A DNA stretch of 19,987 bases, from the IMG/VR virus record IMGVR_UViG_2541047875_000009, positions 1-19,987 of that record. One strand, 5' to 3'. The notes below the pieces were generated by a model, which saw only the letters and a list, made by a program, of their open reading frames with translations, did not search any database and was not told the origin of the DNA. The stretch's first letter is position 1, and every line of letters begins with the position of its first letter. Position numbers and translations under genes: made by a program. Shown here piece after piece: positions 18,301 through 18,456 of the stretch. Source of the DNA: a virus. Its lineage: Duplodnaviria; Heunggongvirae; Uroviricota; Caudoviricetes.

Positions 18301-18456
18301 TTTGCGGGTTATTTTGGGGCGTTTGCGGGTTATTTGGGATGTTTTGCGGGTTATGCGATGCTTGAATAATGAATAGTGCATTTTGCAACATATTGATAAT
18401 AAAGAACAAAAAATAGTTAGCACGCTAAGATAACCCGGTAACCCGCATAACCCGCA
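18301..18456. repeat. second iteron cluster with the same core as the origin (possible crr-like cis site or second origin)
   Basis: Direct TTTGCGGGTTAT at 18301, 18322 and 18343 (exact 21-bp phasing), an AT-rich spacer (18361-18420), then inverted TAACCCGG / TAACCCGCA / TAACCCGCA at 18431-18456. Confidence 0.55.

Follow-up and report, generated by a model that had tools for sequence, protein, structure and literature searches.

The window (the whole stretch of 19,987 nucleotides that was analysed) is a Gram-negative phage-inducible chromosomal island (PICI) of Escherichia coli located between yicC and dinD. Members of this island class are recognised by an integrase, an alpA-like HTH gene, pri-rep and ori in one orientation, by specific att sites and by the lack of tail and lysis genes (PMC6092414), and all of this is found here. 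The genes run in one direction in the order integrase, alpA-like HTH, AntA plus Bro-N, Icd-like, DUF4222 and DUF927 primase-helicase (Rep). After rep there follow in the same direction a first iteron cluster (c1), SSB, ProQ/FinO, a PerC remnant and three large genes, and then a second iteron cluster (c2). Rep has a weak NCBIfam match to the SCCmec Cch1 helicase, a small protein encoded between the two clusters matches the anti-repressor Ant PHROG family, and the Bro-N ORF at 19151 is dinD, the flanking gene of the island. A 24-nt att repeat flanks the entire island, with attL just outside the window. From its right copy it follows that c2 lies inside the island, approximately 385 bp from the right end. 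The features on which the analysis is built are the following:

1..1269, plus strand: tyrosine integrase at the left end of the island (Pfam Arm-DNA-bind_3, Phage_int_M, Phage_integrase)
5572..7698, plus strand: DUF927 primase-helicase, Pri-Rep (Pfam DUF927, E = 1e-46)
7721..7846, plus strand: c1, putative origin lobe beside rep; a 44-bp AT spacer separates two tandem iterons from four inverted ones, which are spaced 11, 21 and 21 bp
7909..17596, plus strand: variable inter-lobe segment with SSB, ProQ/FinO, a small Ant-like protein, a PerC remnant, three large genes and a 104-aa ORF
18301..18354, plus strand: left arm of c2, three TTTGCGGGTTAT iterons with 21-bp phasing
18355..18430, no strand: AT-rich spacer of c2 (76 bp), candidate unwinding region
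18386-18398, minus strand: IHF-consensus match TATCAATATGTTG inside the c2 spacer
18430..18456, minus strand: right arm of c2, three tandem inverted iterons with 8-9 bp spacing
18457..18484, no strand: right edge of c2 (28 bp, conserved) with a (TA)5 tract at 18465-18474
18492..18571, plus strand: phiP27-type cos site adjoining c2, sharing 85.5% identity with the region annotated as cos site in phage phiP27
18840..18863, plus strand: attR, a 24-nt direct repeat with the other copy upstream of int (repeat family D7 in locus L001)

Just beyond attR there is a second copy, 90% identical, of the 21 bp that end yicC (L001 2150-2170 and 21025-21045), which may be the trace of a prior integration at the same site. 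Near-identical or related islands contain a truncated SSB gene (L001 10267-10413) and an internal stop in Bro-N (L001 5856-6413), and the EcCIEDL933-like DUF927 Rep of strain 2013C-3342 (L003 17667-19799) also has an internal stop. This means that some island copies are decaying.

The three large genes between the clusters (9935-17282; 843, 686 and 925 aa), which are also present in strain ExPEC XM, gave no matches in Pfam, PADLOC and NCBIfam. They belong to PHROG families 992, 1145 and 684 (head/virion structural). The first protein has a lysozyme/transglycosylase-like domain, its residues 249-403 match an endolysin and a phage Gp29 in the PDB, and the third protein shares 89% identity with an epsilon15 virion structural protein. 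Judged by these similarities, what had been called a cargo operon is a set of predicted epsilon15-type virion internal or ejection-type proteins. A defence-system reading of the cargo was rejected, since the Pfam, PADLOC and NCBIfam searches remained empty while PHROGs, PDB and tblastn against phages lead to virion internal proteins. The replacement of a capsid module by epsilon15-type internal or ejection proteins is unusual for a PICI, and these proteins point to a different kind of phage than the phiP27-type cos site.

Cluster c2 is a compact array of six short iterons in two opposed sets. Its left arm consists of TTTGCGGGTTAT at 18301-18312, 18322-18333 and 18343-18354 with a period of exactly 21 bp. 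In the right arm (18430-18456) the degenerate copy ATAACCCGG is followed by two times TAACCCGCA, the first inverted iteron being a degenerate CCGGGTTAT. The spacer between the arms has an A+T content of 69.7% compared with 51.7% for the whole window, and its weakest 30-mer belongs to the top 0.07% of the window by ease of melting. The core GCGGGTTAT occurs eight times in the window, all copies falling within c1 or c2, against 0.14 expected copies, and none of 200 shuffles reached eight. Equally spaced 9-mers that recur three times are found in the window in c1 and c2 only and in 0/200 shuffles. According to the definition of SaPI/PICI origins, such a unit comprises 6-12 iterons and a central AT-rich region with at least two oppositely pointing iterons on each side (PMC9371898). 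With six iterons (one of them degenerate), an AT-rich centre and three forward and three inverted copies, c2 has this composition. It departs from the definition in its location, since it is not found immediately downstream of rep but starts 10,603 bp past the Rep stop codon.

Other functions of the c2 sequence were considered as well. A consensus promoter scan of 18301-18456 found none. The reading as an RNA gene was discarded because the Rfam search (E <= 1, 17200-19200) returned nothing beyond a sub-threshold CRISPR-repeat match at 17845-17881. A protein-coding reading was abandoned too: the ORFs at 18172-18369 (plus strand) and 18274-18546 (minus strand) had no matches in family searches, the region varies among variants by non-triplet indels, e.g., in (TA)n and G runs, and the RefSeq "hypothetical protein" annotated over the c2 region of ExPEC XM crosses attR. 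These ORFs were therefore treated as spurious.

Cluster c1 is located directly 3' of the Rep gene. Its location agrees with the definition of the PICI ori (PMC6092414) and with the rep-downstream position of SaPI/PICI origins. Even without c2, c1 has what the definition asks of a complete origin; the weakest 30-mer of its spacer is in the top 0.23% of the window for melting. If the reverse complement of 7690-7880 is compared with 18280-18480, the two clusters align iteron for iteron. Thus the preliminary description was right in presenting c2 as a near mirror image of the cluster at 7721-7846, and its further statements on anatomy hold as well, namely three direct copies at exactly 21 bp (starts 18301, 18322 and 18343), an AT-rich spacer, a distance of about 10.5 kb (10,581 bp as measured here) and the bracketing of SSB, ProQ/FinO and the large downstream genes by the two clusters. 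Of the three tandem inverted copies described, all are present at 18430-18456 but one is degenerate. Beyond the mirror relation the lobes are not equivalent: the IHF consensus WATCAANNNNTTR occurs in 29/34 distinct c2 variants versus 0/25 c1 variants. A (TA)n tract follows c2 and never c1.

On its right side c2 runs into a packaging signal. The 10-nt cohesive end CGCCCGCCCC of phiP27, an Stx2e phage, aligns to 18533-18541, which places cosN about 75 bp past the last c2 iteron, and the right end of the island consists, in this order, of c2, the (TA)5 tract, cos and attR. In this cos-proximal position c2 would come to be situated at the genome end once the island is packaged. Since the island has no terminase, HNH, capsid or portal genes, packaging would need a phiP27/HK97-type helper or a co-resident capsid-forming PICI.

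Several further repeats and matches were observed towards the right end of these islands. A GGTTATCCGTGATCATCCACCAG motif is conserved just inside the right end (window 18791-18813, L002 20505-20528, L004 20394-20426, L201 around 18305-18330) of islands with different att sites and with integrases that share only 27-29% identity; it is a candidate site that may bind a shared excision or regulatory protein such as AlpA. About 70 bp of the window (18702-18772) share 84% identity with a portion of rlfB/rapB, a replication gene in phages P1 and P7, and also match many E. coli plasmids. A separate family of GGCGGTAACTGGTTGATATTTTCG-like repeats (L003 28385-28800, L070 17640-17830, L004 19300-19500) is found in capsid-forming PICIs and EcCICFT073, where it follows terL or else the last small ORF that is conserved; these repeats are candidate packaging or regulatory sites.

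Relatives of the island were collected by an IMG/VR scan for the shared tandem pair, which yielded 61 loci, and were mapped alongside annotated E. coli loci; several of the locus counts given here rest on related elements. Two arrangements can be distinguished. The adjacent type, with 14 loci from IMG/VR and E. coli, has c1 joined to c2 in a mirror-symmetric unit of about 315 bp right after the DUF927 gene. This type includes L003, an EcCIEDL933-like capsid-forming PICI of O157:H7 strains. In the split type (26 loci) c1 follows rep and c2 is found 7.7-10.9 kb downstream, the relative orientation being always identical. The island L201 is split as well, with type-B iterons (see below), lobes only 2.3 kb apart and c2 again joined to cos; over all split islands, L201 included, the lobes are 2.3-10.9 kb apart. 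The DNA between the lobes differs widely. In L005 it is a capsid-protease-portal-HNH-terminase module, in L002 an IS21 plus other genes, and in L201 SSB-ProQ-PerC only. A comparison of related islands had been proposed at the outset as a check, and its outcome is that both clusters are fixed while the cargo between them is variable. Among 5,426 complete E. coli genomes c2 was found at 328 places and the 3' end of type-A Rep at 264.

The junction to the right of c2 is equally regular. In all loci c2 is followed by CTGTTTTGTATATATATACGAAAAATTG or a sequence close to it, which is CATGTTTCTATATATATAAATTG in the EcCIEDL933-like adjacent loci. Past the 28-bp edge there is an RBS plus ATG in adjacent-type islands and cos in split-type islands. 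In every split locus these 28 bp run directly into cos-homologous sequence, and 26 loci, spread over several chromosomal sites, have this order of c2 and cos. In capsid-forming PICIs c2 is located 85-1000 bp after terL. After c1 of L002 (10840-10900) a degenerate iteron is followed by ctgtagatatacaaaaattgaggtg, which resembles the right edge of an adjacent-type c2; this apparent remnant hints that split islands may descend from an adjacent ancestor. Two capsid-forming PICIs, L004 and L005 (E. coli Z1324SEC0014 and KFu019), were found inside terL of a phiP27-type prophage, i.e. embedded in a helper, and in L004 the prophage's own cos-like GGGACCGC motif is located between the prophage HNH and terS genes.

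Comparison of 34 distinct c2 sequences shows that the iteron cores are essentially invariant apart from isolated single-base changes in individual copies, while the spacers between iterons vary. In the right arm TAACCCGCATAACCCGCAC is invariant in 34/34 variants. A second line of evidence comes from the Rep proteins. Over residues 181-600 those of L135 and L201 share 94-95% identity with the window Rep and that of L164 shares 81%, but over the last ~115 residues the identity to it is only about 37% for all three. Reps with a type A C-terminal domain are accompanied by TGCGGGTTA in both lobes, those with type B by (C/G)TTGTCCCA. Type-B origins keep the same layout: on the c1 side a tandem pair, an AT spacer and phased inverted copies, and on the c2 side phased forward copies, an AT spacer, inverted copies in tandem and then a (TA)n tract. 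L135 and L164 are of the adjacent type and L201 of the split type; the sample behind this covariation is small (three type-B loci). From the match of C-terminal type and iteron in both lobes, in adjacent as well as in split islands, it follows that c2 tracks the island's own Rep. In SaPI Reps it is a C-terminal winged-helix domain that reads the iterons (PMC9371898). The specificity of the iterons for the C-terminal domain of the cognate Rep, which is typical of SaPI/PICI origins, is thus indicated for the window through covariation only.

In a TerL-seeded sample, type-A c2 was present downstream of terL in 17/17 islands with a DUF927 Rep versus 4/13 islands with other Reps (Fisher's exact p = 5e-5, uncorrected for relatedness). 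A type-B origin query retrieved 24 genomes with a full-length match and about 70 that mostly match the c2 half only. The latter suggests split arrangements, of which L201 is the one locus checked. An IMG/VR scan for GGGACAACTGGGACAAC returned mostly unrelated GC-rich contigs, the relevant ones being only L149 (the same contig as L135) and L164.

Taken together, these data point to a PICI replication origin that is specific for Rep and has two lobes, c2 being the second one, which became detached from its partner c1; to this reading we assign a probability of roughly 0.6. In anatomy each lobe corresponds to a complete origin unit of the SaPI/PICI type, with six short iterons in two opposed sets and a meltable AT-rich spacer. 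The window Rep probably belongs with MCM-like, self-loading helicases such as SaPI Rep and Cch. Its C-terminal domain would read the iterons and bind both arms of c2, and Rep would then melt the spacer and load there. Accordingly arranged, c2 could act as a second initiation site or as a distant partner that is brought to c1 by Rep-Rep bridging, for which P4 ori/crr and R6K gamma/alpha/beta may serve as models. Of the interpretations offered in the preliminary description, that of a crr-like element or second origin is strengthened by the invariance of the c2 iterons and by their covariation with the Rep C-terminal domain even where c2 is distal, whereas that of a junction between tandem elements has to be given up, since there is a single integrase, the att repeat is located at the island ends only and the c2-cos arrangement recurs in 26 loci.

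Covariation and iteron conservation point to binding of Rep to c2, yet they are silent on the effect that such binding would have. Secondary iteron clusters limit initiation in P1 (incA), F and other iteron plasmids, and c2 could likewise be a negative or buffering site that restrains initiation by titration of Rep or by handcuffing with c1. That c1 alone looks like a full origin and that lobe distances from 0.06 to 10.9 kb are tolerated would agree with such a role. On the other hand, c2 contains a strongly meltable AT spacer, a (TA)n tract and an IHF consensus, which would be needless in a pure titration array. PICIs replicate in a burst after induction, where restraint of copy number has no obvious benefit, and in adjacent-type islands the lobes form one symmetric unit. 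We therefore consider a purely negative role of c2 unlikely.

The constant neighbourhood of cos suggests a different function, in which the split c2 serves packaging, either as a bent complex with Rep and IHF beside cosN in the manner of cosB, or by coupling replication to cutting by terminase. Every split c2, whatever its iteron type, joins phiP27-type cos at the same junction, the IHF consensus is confined to c2 in the proportions given above, and lambda cosB has an IHF site as well. Nevertheless, in the 14 adjacent-type loci c2 adjoins c1 and is away from cos (in L036 a cos-like sequence is found about 3.7 kb from c2), no phiP27-type cos was detectable near the origin of the EcCIEDL933-like L003, and the cos of phiP27 itself has no c2-like iterons beside it. 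Furthermore, TerS is 88-100% identical across both arrangements and the iterons follow the Rep C-terminal domain instead. For the same reasons (location away from cos in 14 loci, tracking of Rep against a near-constant TerS) the iterons were rejected as terminase-binding TerS/cosB repeats. A packaging role as the primary function of c2 appears very unlikely to us.

The poorest candidate is a functionless relic, i.e. a half-origin left by recombination between islands or the junction of tandem elements, which can draw on the high mosaicism of PICIs, on the apparent degenerate right-edge remnant in L002 and on orphan type-A c2 copies kept in islands with unrelated Reps (see below), but is most improbable in view of iteron cores that remain essentially invariant over 34 variants while spacers drift, of a distal c2 that follows the specificity of the resident initiator in both iteron classes, unlike a relic, of type-A c2 in all 17 TerL-sampled DUF927 islands, and of a search in which neither a second integrase nor an internal copy of att turned up between the clusters or beside c2.

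The relation between Rep and iterons extends to other PICI lineages, where three Rep families correspond to three different iterons at the rep-proximal site. Islands with a P4-alpha-like Rep (49% identical to P4 alpha over the helicase and C-terminal part) use the iteron TGTTCACC. They comprise L004 (11220-11450), L041, L046, L100 and L103, which are capsid-forming or helper-embedded PICIs, and have all TGTTCACC copies in one cluster adjoining rep, whereas in P4 the copies are split into crr and ori. The iteron of EcCICFT073 is TCTACC, again in a single composite cluster with no distal one, and a fragment with rep and the proximal ori suffices for plasmid replication (PMC6092414). As EcCICFT073 replicates from this single cluster, a distal lobe is not a general requirement of PICIs. 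Four islands with P4-alpha-like or CFT073-type Reps carry an orphan, non-cognate type-A c2. This means that c2 can persist without its cognate Rep, at least for a time; such orphans are best explained by swaps of the left-hand replication module. A strict co-evolution of c2 with any resident Rep was consequently rejected, because a second cluster of the resident iteron is missing from islands with P4-alpha-like or CFT073-type Reps, some of which carry an orphan type-A c2.

If the proposed two-lobed origin is compared with known systems, the closest relatives are the SaPI/PICI origins, with which it shares six short opposed iterons, a meltable AT-rich centre and apparent specificity of the iterons for the Rep C-terminal domain. 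The gene order int, alpA-like HTH, icd-like, DUF4222, pri-rep, ori, ssb, perC is common to PICIs and this island. The differences are that c2 is not beside rep but 10.6 kb away at the cos end, and that the origin family of the window consists of two mirror-oriented units, either adjacent or split. Capsid-forming (EcCIEDL933 family) and helper-embedded PICIs (L003, L004, L005) share Rep, both lobes, SSB/PerC and the phiP27/HK97-type cos with the window island, which differs by epsilon15-type virion internal proteins at the position of the capsid/portal/HNH/terminase genes.

The second system is satellite phage P4. Its record has the same type-1 iteron in crr (4291-4590, with the end of alpha at 4636) and, 4.7 kb from there, in ori; crr is listed as required in cis. 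P4 and the island of the window are both small integrative satellites in which one iteron forms two clusters separated by kilobases. One cluster is directly 3' of a primase-helicase gene, and this proximal cluster starts with two tandem copies spaced 9 bp. In terms of position, c1 is the counterpart of crr and c2 that of ori. In contrast, the window Rep is a DUF927, Cch-like protein without BLASTP similarity to alpha (best E-value 0.15). Hence the likeness to P4 ori/crr that had been drawn at first sight stands for the layout of two separated sites but does not extend to the initiator, which is no homologue of alpha. Among plasmids, R6K gamma with alpha/beta and P1 incC/incA have one initiator and identical iterons at separated loci, with looping or pairing modulating initiation. 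Both differ from the window in their initiator family; here no partition or copy-control context is evident and the distal site is a full origin-like unit fused to cos.

The PICI origin as such and P4 ori/crr are already known. In the open-access literature searched no description of a second PICI iteron cluster was found, and a two-lobed DUF927-PICI origin, split by up to ~11 kb, with its distal lobe fused to cos and covariation with the Rep C-terminal domain, is absent from it. A more far-reaching version of the two-lobed origin would be that DUF927 PICIs need both lobes, with the distal one as the true or dominant initiation site, c1 as a crr-like enhancer and Rep bridging 2-11 kb, that the c2-cos fusion couples initiation to the cut end, and that P4 ori/crr is one case of a general design. 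We regard this version as doubtful. If it were true, the c2-cos fusion would tie the start of replication to the genome end cut by terminase, and P4 ori/crr would be one case of a "splittable bipartite origin" design among unrelated satellite initiators.

In practice, c2 together with cos is a marker for the right boundary of such islands, and an orphan c2 flags a swap of the replication module. PICIs, the capsid-forming ones included, are widespread vehicles of virulence and defence genes, and the PICI origin has so far been described as a single iteron/AT-rich unit beside rep. In the large E. coli PICI lineage presented here the predicted origin is composed of two mirror-image units, located side by side or up to ~11 kb apart. 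Its members represent a natural series of constructs for a probable self-loading helicase with two putative loading sites (adjacent, 2.3 kb and 8-11 kb apart, and in two specificities), in which it can be tested whether the principle of P4 ori/crr extends beyond P4.
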